Positions 2,603-40,524 of a stretch of DNA of 40,524 nt are shown in pieces (positions within the stretch are counted from its first letter, which is position 1; each line of letters begins with the position of its first letter). Source of the stretch: a virus; IMG/VR virus record IMGVR_UViG_3300045988_037302; one strand, 5' to 3'. The notes under the pieces were generated by a model. The model searched no databases. It was not told where the DNA came from and was given only the letters and a program-made list of their open reading frames with translations. Made by a program: the position numbers and the translations under genes.

Positions 2603-2625
2603 GACTAGAATTGGAGGGTAGTTAT

Positions 2626-3624
2626 ATGACAAAGGGAGAATTTGTGAATGATCTTATATATGACATGACTGGTTATCTGGATGCCGAGGGGACAGAGAGA
2701 TTAAAGATGGCGATTGCGTACCGCATGAAAGGGTTCCGCTTGATTCCGGATGAAACCTTACCCGCTACGGATGTAAGGGACAATGAGTGGATCCTTGGCA
2801 GATACCATGTGGATCTTATCGCTGTGGGACGGAAAGAAAAAACAATCGAAATGTATCTGTATATGCTTAAAAAGTTTTTTGATGAAACCGGACTTCATTA
2901 CGCAACAATGACCGGACAGGATGTGATGGACTACATAGCAATCCGGCAATACAGAGATAAGATCTCCAAGTCCTACGCCGGAAGCATACAAAAATGTCTG
3001 TCGGCGTTCGTGAAGTGGGCTTATCGCAAGCATCATATCGAACATGACATTTACTGGGATATAGATAAGATCAAAATCCCACAGAAGCGTAAAAAGAGGT
3101 TGTCTGACTATGAGGTGTCGAAGTGTAAGAATACCTTAAAGACTCTAAGAGAAAAGGCACTTCTGGAACTGATGCTTAGTGCCGGTCCTCGTGTGGGAGA
3201 GATCTGTAACTTAAAAATCGAAAATCTGGACTTTGAACGTGGGGAAATCCAGATTTACGGAGAAAAGAGCAGTAAATGGCGTACTTGCTTTATGACACCG
3301 GATTGCCGTGTAGCCTTGGAACAGTATGTGAGCGGCAGGACAGAAGGGTATATCTTTTTAAATAGCCGGAATGTGGAAACCGGGAAACCACTGTGTAAGG
3401 CAACAATCGAAGAAATCGCGAAAGAGATCGCAGAGCGTGCCGGATGCCGGAATGTTGCCACAGTGCATGTCTATCGTAAGACGTTTGCATCTAGGGAATA
3501 TCTCCGAACAAAGGATATTTTATATGTATCGCACAGACTGGGGCATGCAAACACAGCAGTCACGGAAAAATATTACATCTGTGACGACATTTTAGCAGAT
3601 CGTAAGATGGCAAACGTTGCTTAG
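2626..3624 (+). CDS. Tyrosine recombinase (XerC/XerD-like), second recombinase of the phage
   Basis: GGAGGG RBS lies 7 nt before ATG 2626. Catalytic-domain pattern seen: GPRVGE (Arg), HVYRKTFAS (His-x-x-Arg), LGHANTAVTEKYY (His...Tyr). It is not adjacent to attP. Confidence 0.85.
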   Translation: MTKGEFVNDLIYDMTGYLDAEGTERLKMAIAYRMKGFRLIPDETLPATDVRDNEWILGRYHVDLIAVGRKEKTIEMYLYMLKKFFDETGLHYATMTGQDVMDYIAIRQYRDKISKSYAGSIQKCLSAFVKWAYRKHHIEHDIYWDIDKIKIPQKRKKRLSDYEVSKCKNTLKTLREKALLELMLSAGPRVGEICNLKIENLDFERGEIQIYGEKSSKWRTCFMTPDCRVALEQYVSGRTEGYIFLNSRNVETGKPLCKATIEEIAKEIAERAGCRNVATVHVYRKTFASREYLRTKDILYVSHRLGHANTAVTEKYYICDDILADRKMANVA

Positions 3625-4565: not shown

Positions 4566-4592
4566 AGAGAGGAAAAACAACCTCTCTTTTTT
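4566..4592 (+). terminator. Intrinsic terminator
   Basis: agagagg-aaaaacaa-cctctct followed by tttttt. Confidence 0.75.
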
Positions 4593-4600
4593 CATGCCCT

Positions 4601-4637
4601 AAATTGGTACAAATCCTCTGAAAACCTGCTTTATAAT
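4601..4637 (+). promoter_or_regulatory. Late-promoter-like element, copy 1 (AAATTGGTACAAAT-N17-TATAAT)
   Basis: The same 13-14 nt box with identical 17-nt spacing to a -10 hexamer recurs at 10113 and 23406. This copy lies 50 nt upstream of terminase small subunit. Confidence 0.6.
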
Positions 4638-4686: not shown

Positions 4687-5532
4687 GTGGAGAATTATGA
4701 GAGAGCAGAACAGGACTACATGGGAGGTATGAAGTACAAAGATATAGCAGAGAAGTACGGAACCACTATCAACACTGTTAAGAGTTGGAAGAAACGGTAT
4801 GGGTGGAATCGGGAAGAGGGTGCACCCAAAAGTAAAAAGGTGTGCACACAAAAAGGCAAGGGTGCACCCAAGGCGGTAGCGCCTATAGATGATGGTACAA
4901 AAGAAACATTACAGAATAATGAACTCACACCGGAACAGCAGATGTTTTGCATATATTACAGCCGGACATTTAATGCAACCCAAAGCTATTTGAATGCCTA
5001 TGGGTGCAGCTATGAAGTGGCGAATGCGAAAGGACCTCTATTGGTAGTGAAAGATAGTATTCACCGAGAAATAGAACGTCTGAAAGAAATCAAGCGCCAG
5101 CAGATAGTTGCTGGAACTGACGATATTGTGGAACTACAGATGCGTATTGCTTTTGCAGATATTGGAAACTATATGTCATTCGGGCAGAAAGAGATTGAGG
5201 ATCCAGAGACAGGTGTTGAATATATGATTAGCACTGTTGATCTGAAAGAATCAACGAACACAGATACACAGATTATCCAAGAGGTTAAGCGTGGAAAAGA
5301 TGGTGTATCTATCAAGCTGGCAGACAGACAAAAGGCAATTGATTGGCTTACGATGTTCTTCGAGATGAATCCAACGGATAAGCACCGGAAAGAATTTGAT
5401 AAGCACAAGCTTGATCTGGAACTGCTTAAGCTGGAGATGCAAGCTAAAGAGAGTGCAGACGATACACCAGAGCAGGACAACTTCTTGGATGCGCTGAATG
5501 AATCAGCAAAGGAAGCGTGGTCAGATGATTGA
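4687..5532 (+). CDS. terS: Terminase small subunit
   Basis: GAGGTG RBS precedes GTG 4687. N-terminal HTH (YKDIAEKYGTTINTVKSWKKRYGW). LTPEQQMFCIYYSRTFNATQSYLNAYG matches the Terminase_2 pattern. Sits immediately upstream of TerL. Confidence 0.8.
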   Translation: MENYERAEQDYMGGMKYKDIAEKYGTTINTVKSWKKRYGWNREEGAPKSKKVCTQKGKGAPKAVAPIDDGTKETLQNNELTPEQQMFCIYYSRTFNATQSYLNAYGCSYEVANAKGPLLVVKDSIHREIERLKEIKRQQIVAGTDDIVELQMRIAFADIGNYMSFGQKEIEDPETGVEYMISTVDLKESTNTDTQIIQEVKRGKDGVSIKLADRQKAIDWLTMFFEMNPTDKHRKEFDKHKLDLELLKLEMQAKESADDTPEQDNFLDALNESAKEAWSDD

Positions 5533-10074: not shown

Positions 10075-10104
10075 AAAGTGCCTTGAAATATAGGCACTTT
10101 TTTG
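10075..10104 (+). terminator. Intrinsic terminator ending the packaging/portal operon
   Basis: aaagtgcct-tgaaatat-aggcacttt (9-bp stem) running into a T tract. Confidence 0.75.
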
Positions 10105-10112
10105 TATGCTCA

Positions 10113-10149
10113 AAATTGGTACAAATCTTTAATAATTCCATGATAAAAT
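10113..10149 (+). promoter_or_regulatory. Late-promoter-like element, copy 2 (AAATTGGTACAAAT-N17-TAAAAT)
   Basis: Same box and same 17-nt spacing as copies 1 and 3. Immediately follows a terminator. Confidence 0.6.
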
Positions 10150-15304: not shown

Positions 15305-18300
15305 ATGGCAGATTATGATGGCAGCATAAGAATAAACACACAAATTGATACGAAAAACGCATCCAGCCAGATGCTACGTTTGGAGAACCAAATTTCCAAG
15401 GCTGCCAAGAAAGCGGCAGATCTTACCGAAAAGATGCGGCAGATGGAGAATCAGAAAGCACCTACAGAGGAATTTAAAGCTGTGCAGGAGCAAATTGACG
15501 ATGCACAAAAAAAACTGGATTCCCTAAATGCAAAAATGGAAAAATTTGTGCAGACTGGTGGGAAAACAGATAGTCGTACTTTTAAGGGAATGAGGTATGA
15601 TGCAGATCAGCTGATTAAGACAATTGAATATGCCAAAGGTGAAATGGCAGATATGCAATCCCGCGGTGGGGCATACATGAACGTTGGAGATGTGCAAGAG
15701 ACTGATGCATATAAAAAAATGGCATCTGATTTATCGGATGCAAATGCAAAAGTTTCGGAATTGTCGCGGAAACAAGAAGAACTTGCTTCCAAAGAATCTA
15801 AAGTCGGCGCACAAGCGGATAAAAGCAAAGGGGAAACATCTGGCTGGTTAGATTCTTTCAAATCCAAGGCAAGAGCTACAGGCGAGAAGGTTTCCGGGCT
15901 GGCATCCCGTTTGAAATCCGCAGGAGCATCACTTAAAAATTTTGTAACACATGGCAAAAGTGGAAGTGGAATGCTTGGGACGTTTGCATCCAGATTAAAA
16001 GGCATCGCACTTTCCATGTTTGTGTTTAACTGGATCACCAAGGCTTGGAATGCAATGCTTTCTGCTATAAAAGACGGAACAGGAAATATTGCAAAATATT
16101 CGGGAGATGTAAATGCCAAAATGTCACAGCTCACAAGTGCTGTGGCAACTCTTAAAAATGCATTTGCTGCATTGGCAGCTCCGATTATTAGTGCTGTTGC
16201 TCCAGCGCTTACTTCGTTAATAAATATGCTCACAGGGGCATTGAACAAGATAAACCAGTTTATATCTGCACTTACTGGCGGGAAAACGTGGATAAAGGCA
16301 ACGAAACAAGTAAAGAATTATGCCGGCGGACTAAAATCTGCATCTTCTGGTGCGGAAAAAGCGGCGAAATCTGCCAAAAAGTTAAAGGGACAATTACAAT
16401 CTTTTAACGAATTAAATGTGATTAGTTCGAACGATTCTGGTGGATCTGGTGGTGGATCTGGTGGAGGTGGGGGTGGCGGAGTTGGAGATATGTTCACGAC
16501 AGAGAACATTGATCCGAAAATTGCCAGCCTTGCAAAGAAGATAAAAGAAATTCTTAAAACCGATGACTGGTCTGAAATCGGAGAAATGCTTGGGAAAAAG
16601 CTGAATGATGCGCTGGCCGGAATTCCCTGGAACGGAATAAAAAAGCAGGCACGCCATATAGCAAGTGGCATTGCAACCTTATTAAATGGATTTCTTGATG
16701 GAACAAACTGGGAACTTGTTGGAAGCACTATTGCAGAAGGACTCAATACAGCTATTGCGTTTGCACAGACGTTTGTACATAAATTCGATTTTAAACAGTT
16801 TGGTAAATCTATAGGGGAAACATTTACAGGAATTTTCCGGACGTTCGATTGGAGCGGTTTAGGAGATACTCTTGGAACTGCAGTTACTGGTCTATTCGAT
16901 ACGCTTAATGGGATTTTTTATAATACCGATTGGAAAGCACTTGGAAAAGGAATTATTGATGGAATTGGAGCTTTTTTCAAGGCAATAAAGTGGAAGAGTA
17001 TTGGAAAATCTATAAGCGGAGCACTGCATTCCCTCTTAACTTTTTTGACTGGTGCGGTAAAGGAAATAGATTGGAAAAAAACCATTGAATACATTGGAAC
17101 ATCAATCGTAGATTTCTTTAAAGGATTTGACTGGAAGGGGCTTGCTGGAGATATTGGAGAGTTCCTTGGAACAGCACTTAAATCTGTGGTAAACCTTGCA
17201 AAAGCTATTGGAGAATTGATTGCGGATGGATTTAGTAATGCAAAAGAATATTTCCAAGACAAGATAGAGGAATGTGGCGGCAATATACCAAAAGGAATTT
17301 TAAAGGGAATAACAGATGCTCTTAAAAATATTGGAACATGGATTAAGAAAAATATATTTGATCCATTTGTGAAAGGATTTAAAGATGCGTTTGGTATCCA
17401 TTCTCCGGCAAAAAAGATGAAGCCTATTGGAAAGAATATATTCCTTGGTGTAATTGATGGTTGGAAAGAAAAGATAAAATCATTTAGCTTTTCAAAGTTG
17501 GCAAAAGAAGCCATTAAGTTAATTCAAAATGGATTTAATGGTGCAAAATCTGTAGTAAATGTTGCGATTTCTTTGATAAAAAAAGGCTGGACTACATTAA
17601 AGAAATTTGTCGGAGAAATAGGGGCGAAAGCTTTTTCTCTTGCAAAAAAAGGCTGGACTACAGTATCAAAATTTGTTGGAGAGATCGGCAAAAAAACATT
17701 TTCTCTTGCAAAAAAAGGCTGGACTACAGTATCTAAGTTTGTTGGAGAAATTGGTAAAAAAGGCTTTGGACTGAAAAAAGATGGCTGGACTACCTTAAAT
17801 AAGTATGTAGGAAAGTTGGATAAAGTAGCCGTGAAATTATATAAGAGCGGTTGGAAATCAATAAACAGCTTTGTGGGAACCACGGTAAAAGTTGGAATCC
17901 AGTTGATAAAAGATGGATGGAGCAGTTTTAAGAACTGGCTTGGAATTGGAAATGATAATTCTTCATCGAAGAAAAAAACATCCAAGAAAGCTGGCGGTGG
18001 AATCTATACCGGTGGTATGTGGCATAACATAGCACATTATGCAGTCGGAACCGAGAACGCACCAGCAGGACAGCTTTTTATCGCGCGTGAAGCAGGACCG
18101 GAGCTTGTCGGAACAATTGCAGGACATACGTCCGTTATGAACAATGACCAGATTGTGGCATCTGTATCGGATGGAGTTGCGCGTGCGGTACGATCCGTAA
18201 TGGCAACCGGAAACCAGAATGTAAATGTTCTGTTTAAAGTGGAAGGAGATCCGAATGGAATCTTCCGTGTGACGCAGCAAAAAGCCAATGAATACTACCG

Positions 18301-18331
18301 GGCAACCGGAAACCCAGCATTTGAATTTTAG
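15305..18331 (+). CDS. Tape measure protein
   Basis: 1008 aa. Has an N-terminal coiled-coil-like region, hydrophobic A/G-rich segments, a Gly run and W/F-periodic repeats. Canonical position. Confidence 0.9.
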   Translation: MADYDGSIRINTQIDTKNASSQMLRLENQISKAAKKAADLTEKMRQMENQKAPTEEFKAVQEQIDDAQKKLDSLNAKMEKFVQTGGKTDSRTFKGMRYDADQLIKTIEYAKGEMADMQSRGGAYMNVGDVQETDAYKKMASDLSDANAKVSELSRKQEELASKESKVGAQADKSKGETSGWLDSFKSKARATGEKVSGLASRLKSAGASLKNFVTHGKSGSGMLGTFASRLKGIALSMFVFNWITKAWNAMLSAIKDGTGNIAKYSGDVNAKMSQLTSAVATLKNAFAALAAPIISAVAPALTSLINMLTGALNKINQFISALTGGKTWIKATKQVKNYAGGLKSASSGAEKAAKSAKKLKGQLQSFNELNVISSNDSGGSGGGSGGGGGGGVGDMFTTENIDPKIASLAKKIKEILKTDDWSEIGEMLGKKLNDALAGIPWNGIKKQARHIASGIATLLNGFLDGTNWELVGSTIAEGLNTAIAFAQTFVHKFDFKQFGKSIGETFTGIFRTFDWSGLGDTLGTAVTGLFDTLNGIFYNTDWKALGKGIIDGIGAFFKAIKWKSIGKSISGALHSLLTFLTGAVKEIDWKKTIEYIGTSIVDFFKGFDWKGLAGDIGEFLGTALKSVVNLAKAIGELIADGFSNAKEYFQDKIEECGGNIPKGILKGITDALKNIGTWIKKNIFDPFVKGFKDAFGIHSPAKKMKPIGKNIFLGVIDGWKEKIKSFSFSKLAKEAIKLIQNGFNGAKSVVNVAISLIKKGWTTLKKFVGEIGAKAFSLAKKGWTTVSKFVGEIGKKTFSLAKKGWTTVSKFVGEIGKKGFGLKKDGWTTLNKYVGKLDKVAVKLYKSGWKSINSFVGTTVKVGIQLIKDGWSSFKNWLGIGNDNSSSKKKTSKKAGGGIYTGGMWHNIAHYAVGTENAPAGQLFIAREAGPELVGTIAGHTSVMNNDQIVASVSDGVARAVRSVMATGNQNVNVLFKVEGDPNGIFRVTQQKANEYYRATGNPAFEF
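17575..17945 (+). repeat. Tandem 66-nt (22-aa) repeats inside the tape measure gene (six or more copies, two nearly identical)
   Basis: ggctggacta recurs at 17585, 17651, 17717 and 17783 (period 66). Protein units are KKGWTT(L/V).KFVGEIG.K.FSLA. Confidence 0.85.
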
Positions 18332-24065: not shown

Positions 24066-24614
24066 ATGAAAATCAACGTACATGCCGGGCACAACCCGGA
24101 TGGAAAGATCGCCTGCGGTGCTGTTGGACTCATCAAGGAGTCCACAGAGGCACGCAAGGTCAAGAAAGAAGTGATCCGACTCCTTAGAAAGAAAGGGCAC
24201 AAGGTGTATGATTGTACCTGCACCAATGGGACAAGCCAGACTGATGTCCTGAAGCGGATCGTAACAAAGTGCAACAAGCACAAGGTGGATCTGGATATTT
24301 CGATTCATTTTAATTGTGGAGTCGGGGATAAGAAAGGCAATGGTAAGACGACCGGAACGGAAGTGTATGTGTACAGTGAGAAAAGCGCAGCGAAGCCGGC
24401 GGCAGAACGTGTCGTTAAAGACATTGCGGCTCTTGGATTCAAAAACCGTGGAGTAAAGATCCGGACTGATCTGTATGTGTTGCGCCGAACCAATTCTCCG
24501 GCCATGCTGATCGAGTGCTGTTTTGTGGATGATAAGGACGATGTGGAGCTGTATTCTTACAAGAAGATGGCGGCAGCAATTGTTACTGGGATTCTTGGAC
24601 AAGCGGTTAAGTAG
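24066..24614 (+). CDS. Endolysin, N-acetylmuramoyl-L-alanine amidase (Amidase_3 type), catalytic domain only
   Basis: HAGHNPDG...GAVG, SIHFN and ECCFVDDKDD match the Amidase_3 zinc-ligand pattern. At 182 aa there is no obvious cell-wall-binding domain. Confidence 0.8.
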   Translation: MKINVHAGHNPDGKIACGAVGLIKESTEARKVKKEVIRLLRKKGHKVYDCTCTNGTSQTDVLKRIVTKCNKHKVDLDISIHFNCGVGDKKGNGKTTGTEVYVYSEKSAAKPAAERVVKDIAALGFKNRGVKIRTDLYVLRRTNSPAMLIECCFVDDKDDVELYSYKKMAAAIVTGILGQAVK

Positions 24615-24633
24615 ATGACACGAAAGATGACAC
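24614..24633 (+). repeat. Arm-type repeat pair GATGACAC-gaaa-GATGACAC, left of the attP core
   Basis: A 20-nt sequence identical to 24833-24852. Confidence 0.8.
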
Positions 24634-24681
24634 AAATTTGAACAATGTATGGAAATAGCGTATCTTACATTGTTTTTTAGA

Positions 24682-24704
24682 GGGTTCGACTCCCGTCTAG
24701 TCCA
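24682..24704 (+). other. attP core: 3'-terminal fragment of a tRNA-like gene (T-loop + acceptor 3' strand)
   Basis: gGGTTCGACTCCCgtctagtcca contains the GGTTCGAnTCC T-arm consensus followed by 7 nt plus a discriminator. No matching 5' half is present, so this is a fragment, as expected for a tRNA-targeting integrase. Confidence 0.65.
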
Positions 24705-24716
24705 CTATTTAAGAAA

Positions 24717-24768
24717 ATCCAGTGTTTATGCGGATTCGGAAGAAAACGTTGAGAACACTGGATTTTTT
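24717..24768 (+). terminator. Hairpin + T tract downstream of the tRNA fragment (would replace the host tRNA terminator after integration)
   Basis: atccagtgtt (24717-26) pairs with aacactggat (24754-63) and is followed by ttttt. The 27-nt loop is large. Confidence 0.45.
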
Positions 24769-24832
24769 GTGGCTTTTTATATTTCCAAATGAGAAACAAG
24801 AAGTCTTATTTTGAAAGCAAAAAAACAAAGTG

Positions 24833-24852
24833 GATGACACGAAAGATGACAC
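24833..24852 (+). repeat. Arm-type repeat pair GATGACAC-gaaa-GATGACAC, right of the attP core, abutting the int stop
   Basis: Identical to 24614-24633. Confidence 0.8.
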
Positions 24853-24855
24853 GAA

Positions 24856-25863
24856 TCAAAGAAGATGGTTTTCAAAATATCCGTTTGCCTGATCGGAATA
24901 TTTTTTTGAAAAATCCGATCTGGTACCGCGGTATACCTGATTCAGAACCGTGTTGGTTTTCCAACCACCACGCTCCATGATGTATGCTTCTGGTACACCC
25001 ATTGCGTGCATGATTGTGGCTGCATAGTGACGCAGATCATGGAAACGAAAATGTGGCAATCCAAGTTTTTTTATCGTGCGTCCGAAATCATGCGTAATCA
25101 TATCCGGGTTAAGATTGCAGATTTTGCCGGAAACAGGAAGTTCTTTAATGACTTTATCTGGATATTCAACATAACGATCAGATGTACTATTTTTGGCAAC
25201 TGATTTTAGTACCCATTTATAATTTTGATTCTTTACCATTGTTTGATGAACATGCACCGTATTTCCTTGTATGTCATCTGCATATAATCCACACACTTCT
25301 GATCTTCGTAATGTTCCAATAGATGCAAGAAGAATTGCAACGTATAGATCATAGTTTGCTGTTTTGGTATAGGAAAGCAATGATTGCAGTTCTTCGTCCT
25401 TTGGAATATAGTATTGTAAGATTTCTTTTTGGGGCATAGTAACACGAAATGATGCATCCGGTATTTGCAGGCGTATGACTGCACAGAGTAGGCTGTATGC
25501 GTTTCGAACGGTCTTGGGCGAATGTTTCCCCGCAAATTCATTTATAAAGCCAACAACTGTGTTCTGGTCAATTTCTGATACATCCATATCTTTGATTGGA
25601 TCGTAATATTTTTCCATCTGCCTGTAGCCGCGCAGAGTGGACGGAGAGAGCACATTGGATTTGGATTCTATGTATCTGGCAAGGGCATCTTTGAATGTGA
25701 TTCTGTCCGGTGTGGAGCGTTCTTCGGCATAATTCAGTGCCAGCCGTTCTGCTTCACGCTTGGTTGCTGCTGTAAATGACTTGTAGTGTTTCTTCCCCTG
25801 TTCATCCTCACCAAGGAAGAGCCGTGCTCTCCAAGATCCGGATGGTAATTTCCTTGCATTCAT
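24856..25863 (-). CDS. int: Tyrosine integrase
   Basis: AGGAGG RBS. N-terminal arm-binding-type region (KLPSGSWRARLF). The C-terminal HDLRHYAAT...GGWKTNTVLNQVYRG supplies His-x-x-Arg and the Tyr. Adjacent to attP. Confidence 0.9.
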   Translation of the reverse strand: MNARKLPSGSWRARLFLGEDEQGKKHYKSFTAATKREAERLALNYAEERSTPDRITFKDALARYIESKSNVLSPSTLRGYRQMEKYYDPIKDMDVSEIDQNTVVGFINEFAGKHSPKTVRNAYSLLCAVIRLQIPDASFRVTMPQKEILQYYIPKDEELQSLLSYTKTANYDLYVAILLASIGTLRRSEVCGLYADDIQGNTVHVHQTMVKNQNYKWVLKSVAKNSTSDRYVEYPDKVIKELPVSGKICNLNPDMITHDFGRTIKKLGLPHFRFHDLRHYAATIMHAMGVPEAYIMERGGWKTNTVLNQVYRGTRSDFSKKYSDQANGYFENHLL

Positions 25864-26006
25864 GTGTCATTCCTCCTAAAAATAGGCGCAAAAATAGCGC
25901 GGTAGTTGATTTATCGCGCTCCGAATGATACAATATGCTTGTTCACGGCGTGTATCTTCGGAGCACGTTTGCCGCTCTGGTGTTTCAGCACCGGGGCGGT
26001 TTTTAT

Positions 26007-26309
26007 TTAATTTACTTTCCAAGTATTTCCACAGTTTTGGCAAATTGCAACAGTGTGGTTGATGGTTTTATCGGCATGTACGTTAATTCCGCCAAGGCTA
26101 TGGCGTTTAAAGAATAAATTCCACCACCAACCGATTAAAATGAAATATAAAGGTTTCCACCACCAACCGATAATAATCCAGTAAAGGCAACTATGGCCTT
26201 TGGAATTCTGAATGGTTACTTTGTTTGTGCCGGCTCCGATGCTTCCGGTTTGTTCCCTTTGAAATGTAATGTTGTTGCTACTACATTTGGGGCAAGTTGC
26301 TTGTGCCAT
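26007..26309 (-). CDS. Split zinc-ribbon membrane protein with duplicated W-rich TM segment
   Basis: GGAGG RBS. CPKC at the N-terminus and CQNC at the C-terminus flank IIGWWWKPLYF / ILIGWWWNLFF. The underlying DNA repeat is ccaccaccaaccgat at 26121 and 26157. Confidence 0.6.
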   Translation of the reverse strand: MAQATCPKCSSNNITFQREQTGSIGAGTNKVTIQNSKGHSCLYWIIIGWWWKPLYFILIGWWWNLFFKRHSLGGINVHADKTINHTVAICQNCGNTWKVN

Positions 26310-26322
26310 AATAAATTCCTCC

Positions 26323-27276
26323 TTATATGTGATTAATCATATTTTGCAATTTATCTCTATCCCATAGTTTTACTCCCAATGCTTTTGCTTCCTCCTGTGC
26401 CTGCTGCGTAAAATATTGATTTGTGAGTACAACAGCAATATCTTTATGATATAAACTCTTTCCGGTATGTGCCTGCTGCACAGCAGCATTTCCAATATTG
26501 GAAGAGTAGCATTTACACTGGATTGCGTAAGTTATATCGTCTTTTTCAGCGAGGATGTCAATGCCGTGATCCCCACTTCCTTGTGTTACTTCAACATTTG
26601 TAAAACCATTGTTTTCTAATACCCCAGCACAATAATGTTCAAATTCTAACCCGCTCATAGTGTCAAAATTTTTATAACCATTTTTGCTTTCGGGAGAGTA
26701 TATATCATCAAGAGTATTTTCTTCCCCTGTCAAAATTGCTCCGTCTAACATCCTTTGCAAAGTCTGGAAATCGACAAGCACAGTTCTTGGTGTTGTCCCA
26801 ACCTCTGGCCCGACAATTCCAGCAGCTTCTAACTGATTCATTATTGTCATTGCGCGATTGAAACCAATTTTTAATTGCCTTTGTAACGTTCCAATAGTTG
26901 CCTTCTTATTATTTACTACAATATCCGCAGCTTCTATGAAAAAAGGATCTGCATCCGGCATATATATCGGTGTAGCCTTGGAACGCTTGTTGAATTTTTC
27001 TATTGCTGCAGGTTTAGATGCAATAACCTTATGTAAATCATCGGAAGGCTTACTGTCAAATGGAACAAAATCTTCATAGCTTGTTAATTCTGTTAGTGCA
27101 TCGACCATTTTATCATATGTGGCATAGAATTCCTTTTCGTTCAATGTTGTATTGACTATTTCGGCAAGATGATTGCATTTTTCGAGTAATAAAGAAGCCT
27201 CTTTTACATTTTCATATTCGCTTTTAAATCGATGTTTAATTTTTTTTAAAATCATATCGCATAAATTCCTTGTCAA
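26323..27276 (-). CDS. FtsK-gamma-like winged-helix + Mrr-type (PD-(D/E)xK) restriction endonuclease domain fusion protein
   Basis: DPFFIEAADIVVNNKKATIGTLQRQLKIGFNRAMTIMNQLEAAGIVGP closely follows the FtsK gamma-domain sequence as I recall it. The C-terminal LEFEHYCAGVLENNGF...GDHGIDILAEK...YAIQCKCY matches the Mrr_cat pattern. 4-nt overlap with ImmA. Confidence 0.7.
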   Translation of the reverse strand: MTRNLCDMILKKIKHRFKSEYENVKEASLLLEKCNHLAEIVNTTLNEKEFYATYDKMVDALTELTSYEDFVPFDSKPSDDLHKVIASKPAAIEKFNKRSKATPIYMPDADPFFIEAADIVVNNKKATIGTLQRQLKIGFNRAMTIMNQLEAAGIVGPEVGTTPRTVLVDFQTLQRMLDGAILTGEENTLDDIYSPESKNGYKNFDTMSGLEFEHYCAGVLENNGFTNVEVTQGSGDHGIDILAEKDDITYAIQCKCYSSNIGNAAVQQAHTGKSLYHKDIAVVLTNQYFTQQAQEEAKALGVKLWDRDKLQNMINHI

Positions 27277-27707
27277 AAAGGTTCGCTTTTAAAGTTCATA
27301 ATTTTTTTATCATATCCAGCGATTCTTGCTATCTGATCTGCCGATATGCCTGGATTTTCTAAAATCAATTCGTCTGGTATAAGTAGCTCAGCGGCAAATG
27401 TATTTGCTTCAATTTCCATCTTGGATGTGAGCAGCAAAGTTTTGTTCCTTATAAAGTAACAATTCTCTTTCCTGTGCATAATCGAGTGTGCAAGCTCATG
27501 AGCCATTACGAGCCGCATTTCATTTTCTTCCAGATCTTCGTTCAGAAATACGCATTTATGGTTTTTTAGAAACATATAACATCCAGCGCGACTGCCAAGC
27601 TCTCCAATTTGAACCTCTACATTTAGGCTTTTGGCAAGATCATATGGATTTCTGGTATTAAATTTTCTTACATAATAGTTGACTAACTGTTTTATGTCTT
27701 TTCTCAA
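27273..27707 (-). CDS. ImmA/IrrE-family metallopeptidase
   Basis: HELAHSIMH (HExxH) in a 144-aa protein directly downstream of the XRE repressor. Confidence 0.85.
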   Translation of the reverse strand: MRKDIKQLVNYYVRKFNTRNPYDLAKSLNVEVQIGELGSRAGCYMFLKNHKCVFLNEDLEENEMRLVMAHELAHSIMHRKENCYFIRNKTLLLTSKMEIEANTFAAELLIPDELILENPGISADQIARIAGYDKKIMNFKSEPF

Positions 27708-27718
27708 TTATGTAACAC

Positions 27719-28141
27719 CTACTTTTTGTTTTTGTTAGGATTATATTTTTCTTTGTTGATCGGTTTTAATTTGCGCATCATCAATTCTATTTGCCCCAGC
27801 AGCAGCTCGGCATCATCTTTTGGTATCGGTTCTCCGTCATAGGATAGTGGACCAGCAGATTCATCTAATAATTTATTGCGCATATTTTCCATGTCTTTGG
27901 CAATATCTCTTTCATCCGATGCAGTAATGGCATAAGGATCATCTATTTGTGTTCCCCCTGTCATTAGATAGTCCATTGTTACATTGAAGTATTCGCATAT
28001 TGCCTTTGCCGTTTTTGCAGAGCATTCAGAACCTTTATTTTTCCATGTACTTATTGTAGATGAATTAATTCCAGTATCTTTGCAAAAACGATACGGTGTT
28101 ATGCCTTTTTCCTTGCATAGCTTTTCAAATATTTCATACAT
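27719..28141 (-). CDS. XRE-family (cI-like) repressor
   Basis: N-terminal HTH_3 pattern (LCKEKGITPYRFCKDTGINSSTISTWKNKG...ICEYFNVTMDYLM). Divergent from the early operon. Confidence 0.85.
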   Translation of the reverse strand: MYEIFEKLCKEKGITPYRFCKDTGINSSTISTWKNKGSECSAKTAKAICEYFNVTMDYLMTGGTQIDDPYAITASDERDIAKDMENMRNKLLDESAGPLSYDGEPIPKDDAELLLGQIELMMRKLKPINKEKYNPNKNKK

Positions 28142-28187
28142 AATTTTCCCTCTTTCTAAAATATCTCGGGAAAACGAAATAAAACTA

Positions 28188-28216
28188 TTGACAAGCTCGG
28201 TATAACGAGATATAGT
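28188..28216 (+). promoter_or_regulatory. Early rightward sigma-A promoter TTGACA-N17-TATAGT with an operator in the spacer
   Basis: ttgaca at 28188-93 and tatagt at 28211-16. The near-palindrome CTCGGTATAACGAG (28196-28209) occupies the spacer, and a related site CTCGGTAATACGAA lies at 28227-28240. Confidence 0.6.
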
Positions 28217-28361
28217 ATAGACATACCTCGGTAATACGAACTGATTCGTTGACCAGACGAGATAATTCGGTTTAGTGATTTAATTCGTTTTGACAAACTT
28301 AATATATCACTAAACCGAGGTATACACAAGTATAAAATCCATACAAAAAGGAGGGATATTT

Positions 28362-28538
28362 TTGTCGAAAATGTACACTTGTGACGAAGTTGCAGAGAGA
28401 TACAAGGTAAAAGTCATTACGGTATGGGATTGGATTCGTCAGAAGAAACTCAATGCAATCAAGCTCGGTAGAGAATACAGAATTTCCGAGGACGATTTGA
28501 CAAGGTTTGAAGATGAGCGAAAAACAATTCGTACCTAA
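28362..28538 (+). CDS. Excisionase/MerR-type HTH protein (Cro- or Xis-like), 58 aa
   Basis: AGGAGGG RBS lies 6 nt before TTG 28362 (ATG at 28371). YTCDEVAERYKVKVITVWDWIRQKKLNAIKLGREYRISEDDL fits the excisionase-family HTH_17 pattern. Below the track cutoff; hand-translated. Confidence 0.6.
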   Translation: MSKMYTCDEVAERYKVKVITVWDWIRQKKLNAIKLGREYRISEDDLTRFEDERKTIRT

Positions 28539-28596
28539 GAGCAGGATACGGCGTTGTGCGTCCAATAAAAAGGACAGCAGAAGGGAGAGTGAGAAC

Positions 28597-28827
28597 GTGG
28601 AGGCAGTAGATAAGCTTATAGAAGCATTAGCAATTCATATCAGTGAAGTCATTTCATCTGGTAAAGAACGTGAACATGAGGTCGCAGAGAAGACAAAGGC
28701 TCTTGCAGAGCTGGTGTCCGCAAGAGCCATGTACTTTCAGAAACCCTGTATAGAAAGTGTTGAAAAAGGTGTTATGAGAGCTGTTTCATCAGCCATTCAT
28801 GGTACTGGCGAAGAATTTCAAGGCTGA
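28597..28827 (+). CDS. Hypothetical protein (start uncertain; track start 28507)
   Basis: GTG 28597 is preceded by gggagag. Helical sequence with no motif. The 3' end overlaps the convergent small ORF 28772-28948. Confidence 0.4.
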   Translation: MEAVDKLIEALAIHISEVISSGKEREHEVAEKTKALAELVSARAMYFQKPCIESVEKGVMRAVSSAIHGTGEEFQG

Positions 28828-37598: not shown

Positions 37599-40121
37599 AT
37601 GACATATAAAGAATTTTTAGAAACAAAGATTGAACTTGCGACAGAAAGCGGATTTATTGTGGATCTGGAAAAAGTCAATAAGGTATTGAAACCGCATCAG
37701 AGGGATGCTGTGGTGTGGGCGCTGAAAGGCGGTAGGCGTGCACTGTTTGAAAGTTTCGGGCTTGGAAAGACCGTGCAGGAGATTGAGTTTTGCCACTTGG
37801 CAGCGGAGTACAGCGGTGGCCGTGCATTGATCGTGTTGCCGCTTGGAGTAAAGCAGGAGTTCACGCATGATGCGGTGGAAGTGCTTGGATATGAGAAACC
37901 GGAGTATTGCCGGACGATGGAAGAGGTGGAGCAGAGCACAAGCCAGATTGTATTAACAAATTATGAGCGTGTACGGGATGGGGATATCCGGCCAGATTAC
38001 TTTGCAGCAACATCACTCGACGAAGCCAGTGTTTTAAGAAGTTTCGGAAGTAAAACTTATCAGACGTTTTTAGATAAATTTAAAAATGTTCCGTATAAGC
38101 TGGTAGCCACGGCTACACCATCACCAAACAAATACAAAGAGCTGATCCATTATGCCGGATATTTGGAAGTGATGGATACCGGGCAGGCATTGACGCGGTT
38201 CTTCCAGAGAGACAGCACCAAAGCAAACAATCTGACCTTATATCCAAACATGGAAGATGAATTTTGGATGTGGGTAAGCAGTTGGGCACTTTTTATCACG
38301 AAACCTTCAGATCTCAATCCGGTATATTCCGATGAGGGATATGATCTGCCGCCGCTTGAAGTAAGATGGCATGAATTGCCGGTGCATTATGGCGATACTG
38401 CAGATCGGGACGGCCAGATGCAGTTATTTCAGGAAGCTGCCGAGGGATTGAAAGAAGCTGCGGCAGTTAAAAGAGAAAGCATTGACCGCCGTGCAACAGA
38501 AATGAAAAGGATTGTGGAAGAATCGCCGGATGATCATTTCTTGTTGTGGCACGATCTGGAGAATGAACGGCATGCGATCAAGAAAGTGCTGCCGGAAGTG
38601 GTGGATATCTACGGATCGATGGATTATGACCTGCGCGAGCAGAGGGTAATTGATTTTTCGAATGGACGGACAAAGTTGTTTGCAACGAAGAAATCATTGT
38701 CCGGATCCGGATGTAACTTTCAGAGATATTGCCACAGGGAGATATTTCTCGGAATTGATTATGAGTTTAATGATTTCATCCAAGCAGTACACCGGTGTTA
38801 CAGATTTTTACAGAAAGAGCCGGTCGTGATTGACATTATCTATATGGAAAATGAGCGGCAGATCAAGGAAGCGTTGCTGGAAAAATGGAAGAATCACAAT
38901 CACATGGTTGCAAAAATGATAGAGATTGTGAAGAGGTATGGACTTAATTCAGAGAATAAGACACGGCGGTTAGAAAGGAAGATGGGCGTGGAAGGCAGCA
39001 GAGAAGAAAGAACGGTTAGGGGAAACCATTATGAAGCGGTATATGGGGATTGTGTAGAGGAAACCCGGGCAATGGAGACAAACAGTATTGATCTGATACA
39101 TACCTCGATCCCATTCGGCAACCATTACGAATACAGCGCAAATTATAACGATTTCGGGCATAACCAGAACACGGACCGGTTCTTTGAACAGATGGATTTT
39201 CTCACACCGGAACTGCTCCGAGTCCTGAAGCCGGGTCGTGTGGCTGCAATCCATGTCAAAGATCGCGTACTGTTCGGAAATGCGACTGGTACCGGGATGC
39301 CTACAATCGAACCATTTCATGCGCTTTGCATTGCACATTACATGAAACACGGATTCCAGTATTTCGGTATGATTACTGTCGTGACTGATGTTGTCCGTGA
39401 GAATAACCAGACATACCGCCTTGGATGGACAGAACAGTGTAAGGATGGTTCAAAGATGGGTGTAGGATGCCCGGAATATATCCTGCTTTTCCGGAAGTTG
39501 CCGACAGATAGATCTACGGCATACGCGGATGATCCGGTCAAGAAATCCAAAGAGGATTACACCCGGGCACAATGGCAGATTGATGCACATGGTTACTGGA
39601 GATCGTCAGGAAACCGACTGATCAGCAAGGAAGAACTGAAAGAGTTTCCTGTGGACAGTTTACAGCAGGTGTACAGGGAATACAGCCGCGGCAATGTATA
39701 TAACTATGAGGATCATGTGAAACTTGCGGAAGATCTGGACAAGGACGGGAAGCTCCCGGCAACATTTATGGTAGTTGCACCGGGATCGTGGAATCAGTTG
39801 GAAGTGTGGGATGATATCAATCGGATGCGTACCCTTAACACCACGCAGAGCCGCAGACGCGCTCAGATGCACGTATGCCCGTTACAGTTGGATATCGTGG
39901 AGAGAATCATCAACAGATATAGCAATGAGGGTGATACGGTCTATGATCCGTTTGGTGGTCTGATGACGGTACCAATGACGGCGATTAAGATGCACCGGAA
40001 CGGCAAAGGATGTGAGCTAAACCCAGATTATTTCCGGGATGGCGTCGGATATCTGCAGGCTGCAGAGAATGAAGTTGACGAGCCGACATTGTTTGATTTC
40101 ATGCCGGAGGTGCTGCCATGA
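37599..40121 (+). CDS. SNF2/SF2 helicase domain fused to a beta-class N6-adenine/N4-cytosine DNA methyltransferase
   Basis: Helicase motifs LKPHQ, GLGKT, LDEAS, TATPSPN, SGSGCNFQ and QAVHRCYRFLQ. MTase motifs are TSIPFG (motif IV position, (D/S)PP(Y/F)-like) and the C-terminal VYDPFGGLMTVP (FxGxG), in beta-class order. Confidence 0.8.
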   Translation: MTYKEFLETKIELATESGFIVDLEKVNKVLKPHQRDAVVWALKGGRRALFESFGLGKTVQEIEFCHLAAEYSGGRALIVLPLGVKQEFTHDAVEVLGYEKPEYCRTMEEVEQSTSQIVLTNYERVRDGDIRPDYFAATSLDEASVLRSFGSKTYQTFLDKFKNVPYKLVATATPSPNKYKELIHYAGYLEVMDTGQALTRFFQRDSTKANNLTLYPNMEDEFWMWVSSWALFITKPSDLNPVYSDEGYDLPPLEVRWHELPVHYGDTADRDGQMQLFQEAAEGLKEAAAVKRESIDRRATEMKRIVEESPDDHFLLWHDLENERHAIKKVLPEVVDIYGSMDYDLREQRVIDFSNGRTKLFATKKSLSGSGCNFQRYCHREIFLGIDYEFNDFIQAVHRCYRFLQKEPVVIDIIYMENERQIKEALLEKWKNHNHMVAKMIEIVKRYGLNSENKTRRLERKMGVEGSREERTVRGNHYEAVYGDCVEETRAMETNSIDLIHTSIPFGNHYEYSANYNDFGHNQNTDRFFEQMDFLTPELLRVLKPGRVAAIHVKDRVLFGNATGTGMPTIEPFHALCIAHYMKHGFQYFGMITVVTDVVRENNQTYRLGWTEQCKDGSKMGVGCPEYILLFRKLPTDRSTAYADDPVKKSKEDYTRAQWQIDAHGYWRSSGNRLISKEELKEFPVDSLQQVYREYSRGNVYNYEDHVKLAEDLDKDGKLPATFMVVAPGSWNQLEVWDDINRMRTLNTTQSRRRAQMHVCPLQLDIVERIINRYSNEGDTVYDPFGGLMTVPMTAIKMHRNGKGCELNPDYFRDGVGYLQAAENEVDEPTLFDFMPEVLP

Positions 40122-40524
40122 AAGATTTAATTATCGATTGCTTCGCTGGCGGCGGTGGGGCGAGTGTGGGAATTGAGATGGCTCTTGGGCGGCCGGTTGA
40201 TATCGCAATCAATCACGACCCGGATGCCATATTGATGCACAAGACAAACCACCCGGATACGCTGCATCTGACAGAGGATATCTTCAAAGTCGATTTGCAG
40301 AAATATGTAAAAGGCCGGCATGTAGCACTGATGTGGGCAAGCCCGGACTGTACAAGCCATTCCAAGGCAAAAGGTGGAAAACCACGGGAGAAAGGACTGA
40401 GAATCCTCCCGTGGGCTGTATATAAACATGCCAAAGCAATCCTGCCGGATGTGATTATCATGGAGAATGTGGAAGAAATACAGCAATGGGGTCCTCTTGA
40501 TGAGAATGGACATCCTATACCGGA
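40118..40524 (+). CDS. DNA (cytosine-5) methyltransferase, N-terminal part (continues at base 78 via the circular junction)
   Basis: ATGA overlap with the upstream stop. DCFAGGGG (motif I), SPDCTSHSKAKGG (motif IV PC dipeptide), ENV (motif VI). The frame is open to the window end and in phase with 1-1035. Confidence 0.9.
   Translation, partial: MKDLIIDCFAGGGGASVGIEMALGRPVDIAINHDPDAILMHKTNHPDTLHLTEDIFKVDLQKYVKGRHVALMWASPDCTSHSKAKGGKPREKGLRILPWAVYKHAKAILPDVIIMENVEEIQQWGPLDENGHPIP
40448..40524. repeat. Terminal direct repeat, identical to 1-77
   Basis: Direct comparison of both ends. Confidence 0.95.

Follow-up and report, generated by a model that had tools for sequence, protein, structure and literature searches.

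A gamma-Mrr nuclease in the lysogeny operon of a gut Clostridia phage as a candidate prophage defence enzyme

Layout of the lysogeny operon

The DNA analysed here is the whole of IMG/VR virus record IMGVR_UViG_3300045988_037302 (40,524 nucleotides (nt), hereafter the window), and the genes under study lie in a compact minus-strand block, which includes an XRE/CI-type repressor, an ImmA-type metallopeptidase, a nuclease joining an FtsK-gamma winged helix to an Mrr-type catalytic domain, and a protein of 100 amino acids (aa) with a split zinc ribbon, as listed in Table 1. The last two genes are read, with moderate confidence, as two separate morons of the lysogeny operon, the nuclease probably being a single-protein defence enzyme that would be expressed in the lysogen and act against foreign DNA. 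The initial annotation had placed both genes directly after XRE and ImmA in the same orientation, which was confirmed, with the tyrosine integrase coming next. The intergenic gaps of the four-gene block are 11, 17 and 13 nt, followed by a 143-nt spacer before the integrase, and a scan of 24500-28700 detected no terminator-like site inside the block. Compact gaps and the lack of an internal terminator-like site make co-transcription with the repressor a reasonable inference, and the cargo genes would be expressed in the lysogen. The 4-nt overlap with ImmA described before at 27273-27276 needs the TTG start at 27276 and is an artefact of the mechanical open reading frame (ORF), because the close homologues are 310–313 aa long and public gene calls begin at ATG 27255, so that 17 nt separate the ImmA stop from the nuclease gene. 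The GGAGG ribosome-binding site (RBS) previously assigned to each cargo gene was found for the 100-aa gene and for the integrase gene as well, whereas AAGGAA stands before the nuclease gene. The exact 310-aa nuclease is recorded on at least 48 contigs, among them a circular 40.6-kb contig resembling the window and integrated prophages in which the order XRE-ImmA-nuclease-zinc ribbon-integrase is unchanged and the tyrosine integrase is followed by the transfer-messenger RNA (tmRNA) gene, smpB, rnr and secG. Lying between repressor and integrase and co-oriented with the repressor, also in integrated prophages, the nuclease gene is a moron of the prophage lysogeny module.

Table 1. Coordinates of the features discussed, given as positions of the window.
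Feature	Position	Strand	Details
XRE/CI-type repressor	27719-28141	-	Pfam HTH_26 + HTH_3; first gene of the lysogeny operon
ImmA-type metallopeptidase (Peptidase_M78)	27273-27707	-	Pfam E 4.2e-18; PADLOC capP E 2.5e-16
Nuclease gene, likeliest extent	26323-27255	-	310 aa from ATG 27255
Nuclease, mechanical ORF	26323-27276	-	317 aa from TTG 27276
N-domain	26971-27255	-	~95 aa, four/five helices; specific to the nuclease family
FtsK-gamma-type winged helix	26773-26955	-	residues 108-168 (317-aa ORF); PF09397
Mrr_cat PD-(D/E)xK nuclease domain	26335-26664	-	residues 205-314 (317-aa ORF); PF04471
100-aa split zinc ribbon gene	26007-26309	-	GGAGG RBS; independent cargo
CPKC knuckle	26283-26294	-	invariant
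W-rich hydrophobic hairpin	26109-26189	-	CLYWIIIGWWWKPLYFILIGWWWNLFF, between the two knuckles
CQNC knuckle	26031-26042	-	invariant
Tyrosine integrase	24856-25863	-	Pfam Phage_integrase; downstream end of the lysogeny block
Divergent operator/promoter region	28142-28361		13-nt CTCGGKAWWACGA repeats x3, 31-nt spacing
attP core	24682-24707	+	26 nt, equal to the 3' end of the tmRNA gene flanking integrated relative L001
Endolysin (Amidase_3)	24066-24614		abuts the integrase, attP core in between
SNF2-related domain + N6_N4 DNA methylase fusion	37599-40121		840 aa
C5 DNA methyltransferase	40118 to 1035, across the junction of the circular genome		454 aa
Second tyrosine recombinase	2611-3624		337 aa; just upstream of the small terminase gene
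Small terminase gene	4687-5532

Two observations were made at the ends of this block. Within the immunity region (28165-28323), direct repeats of CTCGGKAWWACGA start at 28165, 28196 and 28227, with an inverted copy near 28311-28323, and they overlap the best promoter-like site (plus strand, 28188-28216, TTGACA/TATAGT); the repeats are likely to be repressor operators. In the interval separating the stop codon of the 100-aa gene from the integrase start, a promoter-like site (plus strand, 25906-25934, TTGATT-17-TACAAT with TG) is followed by a two-hairpin element ending in a U-run (plus strand, 25936-26012, -31.2 kcal/mol, z = -4.7), which is the sole terminator-like site in the scanned region and is oriented on the plus strand. 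The element at 25906-26012 may either specify a small antisense RNA or insulate int from the cargo genes.

Domains of the nuclease

The fusion of an FtsK gamma domain to an Mrr_cat nuclease, proposed from the sequence before, is borne out by Pfam profiles for both domains, at scores that chance cannot explain, and the AlphaFold2 (AF2) model agrees with them (29 homologues, mean predicted local distance difference test (pLDDT) score 84). Mrr_cat is matched with E 1.1e-30 and 106.5 bits (cutoff 21) over profile positions 2-115 of 115, and its catalytic set reads E...GDHGID...IQCK, with E206, D233, Q246 and K248 (310-aa numbering) invariant in 29 of 29 sequences. The predicted structure of the nuclease domain resembles MspJI, AF1548, AspBHI, Can2 and Hjc in Foldseek comparisons. 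The D-Xn-QxK motif has been shown to be catalytic in MspJI, as D-X20-QAK (PMC3479186), and since the same D...QxK arrangement is invariant here, a dead nuclease is unlikely. A catalytically dead fold serving only for binding or as a sensor, of the NA-iREase1 kind, would accord with a match to that Pfam family (E 3.3e-9); it is very improbable, as Mrr_cat scores far higher (106 vs 37 bits), the catalytic positions are all invariant and the domain is under strong purifying selection. The Mrr_cat core (GDHGIDILAEKDDITYAIQCKCYSSNIGNAAV...) retains 74–88% aa identity even where the front halves of the compared proteins are unrelated or less than 35% identical, while the third codon positions of the conserved residues are only ~50–57% identical. 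Diverged synonymous sites in a conserved protein indicate purifying selection on the nuclease domain, and recent horizontal spread as the cause of the near-identical core was ruled out by the same sites. The protein is predicted to be an active nuclease.

Among known enzymes, the window protein is closest in plan to the type IV enzymes Mrr, MspJI and AspBHI, the latter two being the top matches of Foldseek in the Protein Data Bank (PDB): in each, a domain that reads DNA precedes a C-terminal Mrr-type PD-(D/E)xK domain with D...QxK on a single chain. It differs from them in that its reader is an FtsK-gamma winged helix rather than an Mrr_N or SRA-like domain, in its extra N-terminal helical domain, and in being phage-borne and placed in a repressor operon. 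Pfam returned FtsK_gamma and no Mrr_N-type DNA-binding domain for the window protein, so it is not of the E. coli Mrr type, and the PADLOC model mREase_IV matched weakly (E 4e-4), on the nuclease part only. The best PADLOC matches, ZorD (E 2.9e-20), PDC-S02 (E 9.7e-14) and LmuA (E 9.5e-9), likewise all fall on the nuclease domain, and the alignment to PDC-S02 spans only positions 193-307 of 334, or about a third of that profile. No SNF2 helicase, ZorABC, LmuB or structural maintenance of chromosomes (SMC) partner lies near the window gene, unlike in Zorya and Lamassu. Membership in PDC-S02, Zorya or Lamassu was rejected, the matches being limited to the nuclease domain and the Zorya and Lamassu partner genes being absent. 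The fusion had not been recognised as a named defence system, and this holds in that no PADLOC model extends past the nuclease domain, although generic public labels exist for the exact protein ('restriction system protein' and 'Restriction endonuclease [Caudoviricetes sp.]'). A literature search turned up no paper on an FtsK_gamma+Mrr_cat fusion and none that gives FtsK gamma a part in anti-phage defence.

The gamma domain is matched by FtsK_gamma with E 4.1e-22 and 78.1 bits (cutoff 30.6) and by phmmer against 2j5p with E 5.7e-9, and the gamma part of the AF2 model superposes on 2j5p/2ve9 with a template modelling score of 0.83–0.91 and a root-mean-square deviation of 1.1 A (Foldseek). It therefore belongs to the same fold and sequence family as the gamma domain of FtsK and SpoIIIE, the reader of FtsK orienting polar sequences (KOPS) or SpoIIIE recognition sequences (SRS) and activator of XerD, yet the window protein lacks the translocase motor and is fused to a nuclease: no Pfam match to FtsK_SpoIIIE (PF01580) was obtained for it, a remnant of the motor being present in some longer relatives only. 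The recognition helix reads NRAMTIMNQLE in the window and NRAARIIEQME in E. coli. E. coli FtsK becomes blind to KOPS when R1300, E1303 and E1306 are mutated (PMC2680272), and the aligned window residues are T, N and E. Across 102 gamma domains of the family, position 1300 is occupied by R (41), K (22), H (13) or others (26), position 1303 by D (65), N (25), E (8) or others (4), and position 1306 by E (65), Y (12), C (12) or others (13); among the closest homologues the R1300 equivalent is T, E or K. With two of the three KOPS-specificity residues replaced and these positions variable in the family, the earlier idea of a KOPS-type directional reader lacks support and was dropped. A variable or diversifying gamma specificity fits better, judging from these alignments. 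The gamma segment is also mosaic between the window protein and the 86%-identical relative L001, with a nucleotide identity of 74% in gamma against 90% in the N-domain and 96% in the nuclease.

FtsK_gamma is used by other phage proteins too, as seen from PHROG matches, and has been described in a phage small terminase (PMC8190038). Gamma and Mrr_cat are fused in both orders, gamma-Mrr and Mrr-gamma, which argues that gamma works as the DNA-binding module of the nuclease, and binding to duplex DNA is predicted from the modelled structure. A role as recombination accessory factor was also considered, in which gamma would act on a neighbouring recombinase as FtsK gamma does on XerD, which it activates via its DNA-binding surface (PMC5052618). 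In its favour, a tyrosine integrase lies one gene away and a second tyrosine recombinase is encoded at 2611-3624; however, the family occurs beside serine recombinases as often as beside tyrosine ones, gamma is dispensable in many members and a nuclease with a conserved active site is left unexplained, which makes such a role highly improbable.

The N-terminal region, ~100 aa, was left unassigned before and is still without a Pfam match or a PDB fold match. Modelled alone, the N-domain reaches an AF2 pLDDT of 92.9; Foldseek detected no fold relative in the PDB (best E 1.2), and its matches in BFVD are solely uncharacterised gut-phage proteins (template modelling score 0.69–0.75). Among 1.84 billion representative proteins, 41 relatives of the N-domain were found; Mrr_cat is present in 20 of the 34 that were scanned and gamma in only six, and the N-domain is a dedicated companion of this nuclease. 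Both alignments of the family show N35, T37, F43, L57, F66, P70, L74 and R91 of the N-domain unchanged throughout.

The nuclease family, its genomic slot and the zinc ribbon gene

A word-indexed search returned 1,114 related protein clusters, and at least 507 encoding loci were observed when one genome per species was scanned; nearly all of the 80 loci retrieved belong to gut or rumen Clostridia, chiefly Lachnospiraceae and Oscillospiraceae. The front ends of the family are shuffled, with N-domain-gamma-Mrr (the window type), gamma-Mrr, Mrr-gamma, N-domain-Mrr lacking gamma, and Mrr-gamma-Mrr, and transmembrane (TM) or zinc-ribbon-TM-TM anchors are predicted in ~45% of the members. Among 30 gamma+Mrr loci of species-representative genomes, an XRE gene lies at most four genes upstream in 14 and a serine or tyrosine recombinase at most five genes downstream in 13, while 11 have both flanks and several of those that do not are truncated contigs. 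The repressor operon had been taken for a typical cargo site, and the repressor-to-integrase slot is indeed a recurrent home of the nuclease, whatever the type of repressor or integrase: XRE, XRE with M78, and S24 repressors were observed, as were serine and tyrosine integrases, and several lineages have the M78 gene immediately before the Mrr gene. The 65%-identical relative P0006 shows the order XRE-nuclease-SIR2_2-serine integrase, with neither ImmA nor the 100-aa gene, whereas the 457-aa relative P0037 has the architecture ZnR-TM-TM-N-domain-gamma-Mrr (ZnR, zinc ribbon) in the order XRE-ImmA-nuclease-(DUF6978, DUF1828/1829)-tyrosine integrase. Other conflict genes in the same slot of related prophages include SIR2_2, PBECR3, DUF1828/1829 and a MuF-like protein, and the defence families matched among immediate neighbours are TmtA, PDC-S03, PDC-S36 and PD-T4-1. 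Of the prophage slots and defence islands put forward as places to survey for homologues, the former are recurrent sites, and defence-gene matches among neighbours are modest. As a side observation, the prophage of the 65%-identical relative encodes a 527-aa SIR2_2 protein (L002:9412-10995), a candidate defence cargo, between the gamma-Mrr nuclease and the serine integrase.

A relative of the nuclease is also found in a cultured phage. The 'putative restriction endonuclease' of Roseburia phage Jekyll (VUE37434.1), a mitomycin-inducible prophage, has an Mrr_cat core 61% identical to that of the window and occupies the slot Xre-M78-'putative restriction endonuclease'-HslV-like-integrase; it differs in its front end, which consists of ZnR and TM segments instead of N-domain and gamma. 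The endonuclease is not discussed in the Jekyll paper.

The genomic setting bears on two other functions. One is a nuclease of the lytic cycle or of host takeover, which would degrade host or competitor DNA or process DNA for the development of the phage itself, and which would rise at induction, once the destruction of the repressor by ImmA has freed the autoregulated operon. Relatives composed of an FtsK_SpoIIIE remnant, gamma and Mrr do lie in a head-morphogenesis operon, between minor capsid and scaffold genes; the best PHROG match, phrog_13700, belongs to the category 'moron, auxiliary metabolic gene and host takeover', and the two methyltransferases of the phage could mark self DNA in lytic growth. 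At most sampled loci, however, the gene directly follows the repressor in the same orientation, pointing away from the early lytic genes, and even the late-operon site is one for morons, as AntA/ANT antirepressor genes share it, so that a lytic role is considered unlikely. The other is a generator of damage signals, in which the nuclease would respond to a cue (foreign methylation, for example, or infection) with DNA breaks that act through RecA and ImmA to induce the prophage. E. coli Mrr, when activated, sets off the SOS response (PMC5435990) and would offer a comparable case, and the linkage to ImmA/M78 is recurrent and tight (a 17-nt gap in the window and a 14-nt overlap in L008); yet the family is found equally behind S24-type and plain XRE repressors without ImmA, and the probability of this function is slight.

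The 100-aa protein belongs to a small family of 25 clusters; its sole family-library match is phrog_3845, of unknown function, and PADLOC gave no match. As annotated initially, its Cys knuckles are split around duplicated GWWW motifs, and the W-rich segment contains a 36-nt (12-codon) tandem duplication (26119-26141 / 26155-26177), while some relatives have a single GWWW copy and some an extra N-terminal zinc ribbon. The two membrane segments also described there are an interpretation, the halves measuring only ~11–12 residues each, and a standard 19-residue hydropathy scan found no TM helix. Zinc binding needs both knuckles to meet, so a membrane-dipping hairpin with both ends cytoplasmic is more plausible than two full TM helices.

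The two cargo genes had been presented as one module, which the contexts of the 100-aa family contradict: an Mrr_cat neighbour was observed in none of its seven independently sampled lineages, and the 100-aa gene is present in only four of 73 Mrr-seeded loci. Homologues were seen after XRE-PBECR3-M78, after an S24 repressor and a 304-aa membrane protein, after a MuF-like 380-aa protein, before an M78 gene at a truncated contig end, and adjoining tape-measure genes, and their neighbours did not match any of the three nuclease domains significantly. The 100-aa gene is an independent cargo that shares the hot spot with the nuclease, and its product is possibly a superinfection-exclusion factor. 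In one of these lineages (L107:3820-4962 and L108:1600-2742), a 380-aa Phage_min_cap2 (MuF-like) protein precedes the 100-aa homologue between repressor and serine integrase; a 'minor capsid' domain is unusual at such a site and recalls the phage toxins of the MuF type.

An obligate two-gene defence system, with the membrane zinc-ribbon protein as sensor or anchor and the gamma-Mrr nuclease as executor, is improbable for the same reasons, obligate pairing being ruled out by these unbiased contexts (0/7). The genes are adjacent in the window lineage and at four other Mrr loci with differing nuclease architectures (L028, L031, L042 and L066), about 45% of the relatives have TM or zinc-ribbon-TM-TM anchors in cis, L031 fuses the double GWWW motif to Mrr_cat, and the Jekyll relative is a ZnR-TM-Mrr_cat protein, all of which would suit such a system. 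On the other hand, close relatives of the nuclease precede SIR2_2 or directly the integrase, and 69 of the 73 Mrr loci lack the 100-aa gene. Its apparent enrichment beside TM-less nucleases (Fisher p = 0.025) was discarded, since significance is lost once L031 is scored as membrane-bound, and homology of the 100-aa protein to the ZnR-TM-TM anchors of longer relatives was not detected, apart from the GWWW motif of L031.

The L031 protein merits a separate description: in this uncultured Clostridia metagenome-assembled genome, a 200-aa protein (L031:971-1573) joins the double GWWW motif directly to Mrr_cat and is matched by the hidden Markov model of the 100-aa family with E 1.3e-3, and a separate 100-aa homologue lies two genes downstream.

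Prophages are known to carry cargo in the lysogeny module between repressor and integrase, such as lactococcal Sie2009 and Ltp of Streptococcus thermophilus. These are small membrane proteins or defence genes that are co-transcribed with the repressor beside the integrase, and the same position is held by 100-aa homologues in several unrelated phages. The comparison is one of position only, as a zinc ribbon with an inserted W-rich hairpin is another type of protein, and the 100-aa family, unlike Sie2009/Ltp-type cargo, is also found beside tape-measure genes.

Proposed function and the phage genome

In the preferred explanation, the defence moron of the lysogen, the product would be a soluble three-domain DNA endonuclease. 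Its N-domain may contribute oligomerisation or regulation, its gamma winged helix would dock the enzyme on duplex DNA with a specificity other than KOPS, and the Mrr-type nuclease, with its catalytic motif intact, would do the cutting. Being transcribed with the repressor, the enzyme should be present in the lysogen, where its presumed target is incoming foreign DNA, for example that of superinfecting phages. Slightly favoured is a type-IV-like mode, in which the host would be spared for want of a required modification or DNA state and for which the dependence of Mrr and MspJI on modification offers the simplest analogy, and nearly as likely is a latent effector that infection would unleash in an abortive manner, with the N-domain as regulator.

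Several points weigh against a defence enzyme of this kind. The phage encodes its own C5 and SNF2-linked N6/N4 methyltransferases, so any model of cutting methylated DNA must exclude the marks of the phage itself; a classical restriction-modification pairing with these two methyltransferases, 11–14 kb away in the lytic part, is unlikely. The relatives with an FtsK_SpoIIIE remnant in the head-gene operon fit a lytic-cycle role, only ~5 of 82 downstream neighbours match defence models, so that the 'defence island' signal is modest, and PADLOC gave no full-length match to any system. Expression in the lysogen is deduced from gene order only, and no experiment on the gamma-Mrr nuclease was found in the literature.

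A related arrangement, considered rather unlikely, is an entry guard, in which a membrane-held Mrr_cat nuclease would dock via gamma on injected DNA and cleave it locally, resulting in superinfection exclusion. The GWWW-Mrr_cat fusion of L031 and the many membrane-anchored relatives suggest it; the tether would be a ZnR-TM-TM or GWWW anchor in cis and, in the window phage, possibly the downstream GWWW zinc-ribbon protein in trans. Spatial confinement rather than modification may then spare the host DNA, and the diversifying residues of the gamma recognition helix may mirror an arms race over the DNA that is caught.

The general logic of a defence moron is not new, because nucleases of the Mrr type are already established as effectors of defence, and defence cargo is known from prophage repressor operons. 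What is new is the use of an FtsK-gamma winged helix, in both fusion orders, as the predicted module by which a nuclease docks on DNA, together with a dedicated helical N-domain lacking a solved structural relative and a nearly invariant nuclease core recombined with membrane anchors. Considering its abundance in human and animal gut Clostridia (the at least 507 loci, and dozens of contigs with the exact protein), the nuclease could be a major determinant of phage-phage exclusion in the gut, and Jekyll, as an inducible cultured prophage with a relative of the nuclease, provides an experimental entry point.

The window itself ends in a 77-nt exact terminal repeat (1-77 = 40448-40524), indicating a circular assembly and a complete phage genome of 40,447 bp, and the taxonomy of the related loci points to gut Clostridia as hosts. 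The source is a complete gut Clostridia phage, temperate and with the tmRNA gene as its integration site, and the position of the attP core places the cargo genes at the integrase end of the prophage. The genome carries two DNA methyltransferases and two tyrosine recombinases. In the attP region (24609-24856), the 26-nt core is bracketed by 29-nt direct repeats of AAGTRGATGACACGAAAGATGACACRAAT (24609-24637 and 24828-24856); these repeats, with a doubled GATGACAC in each copy, may serve as arm sites of the integrase. Elsewhere, a 1008-aa ORF (15305-18331), probably the tape-measure protein, contains four tandem 66-nt (22-codon) repeats at 17568-17831 that are 62–74% identical, and a 29-nt repeat, TTTTTKYATGCYCWAAATTGGTACAAATC, occurs at 4587-4615, upstream of the terminase genes, and at 10099-10127, upstream of the head-gene cluster, where the pair may represent a late-promoter or regulator site.

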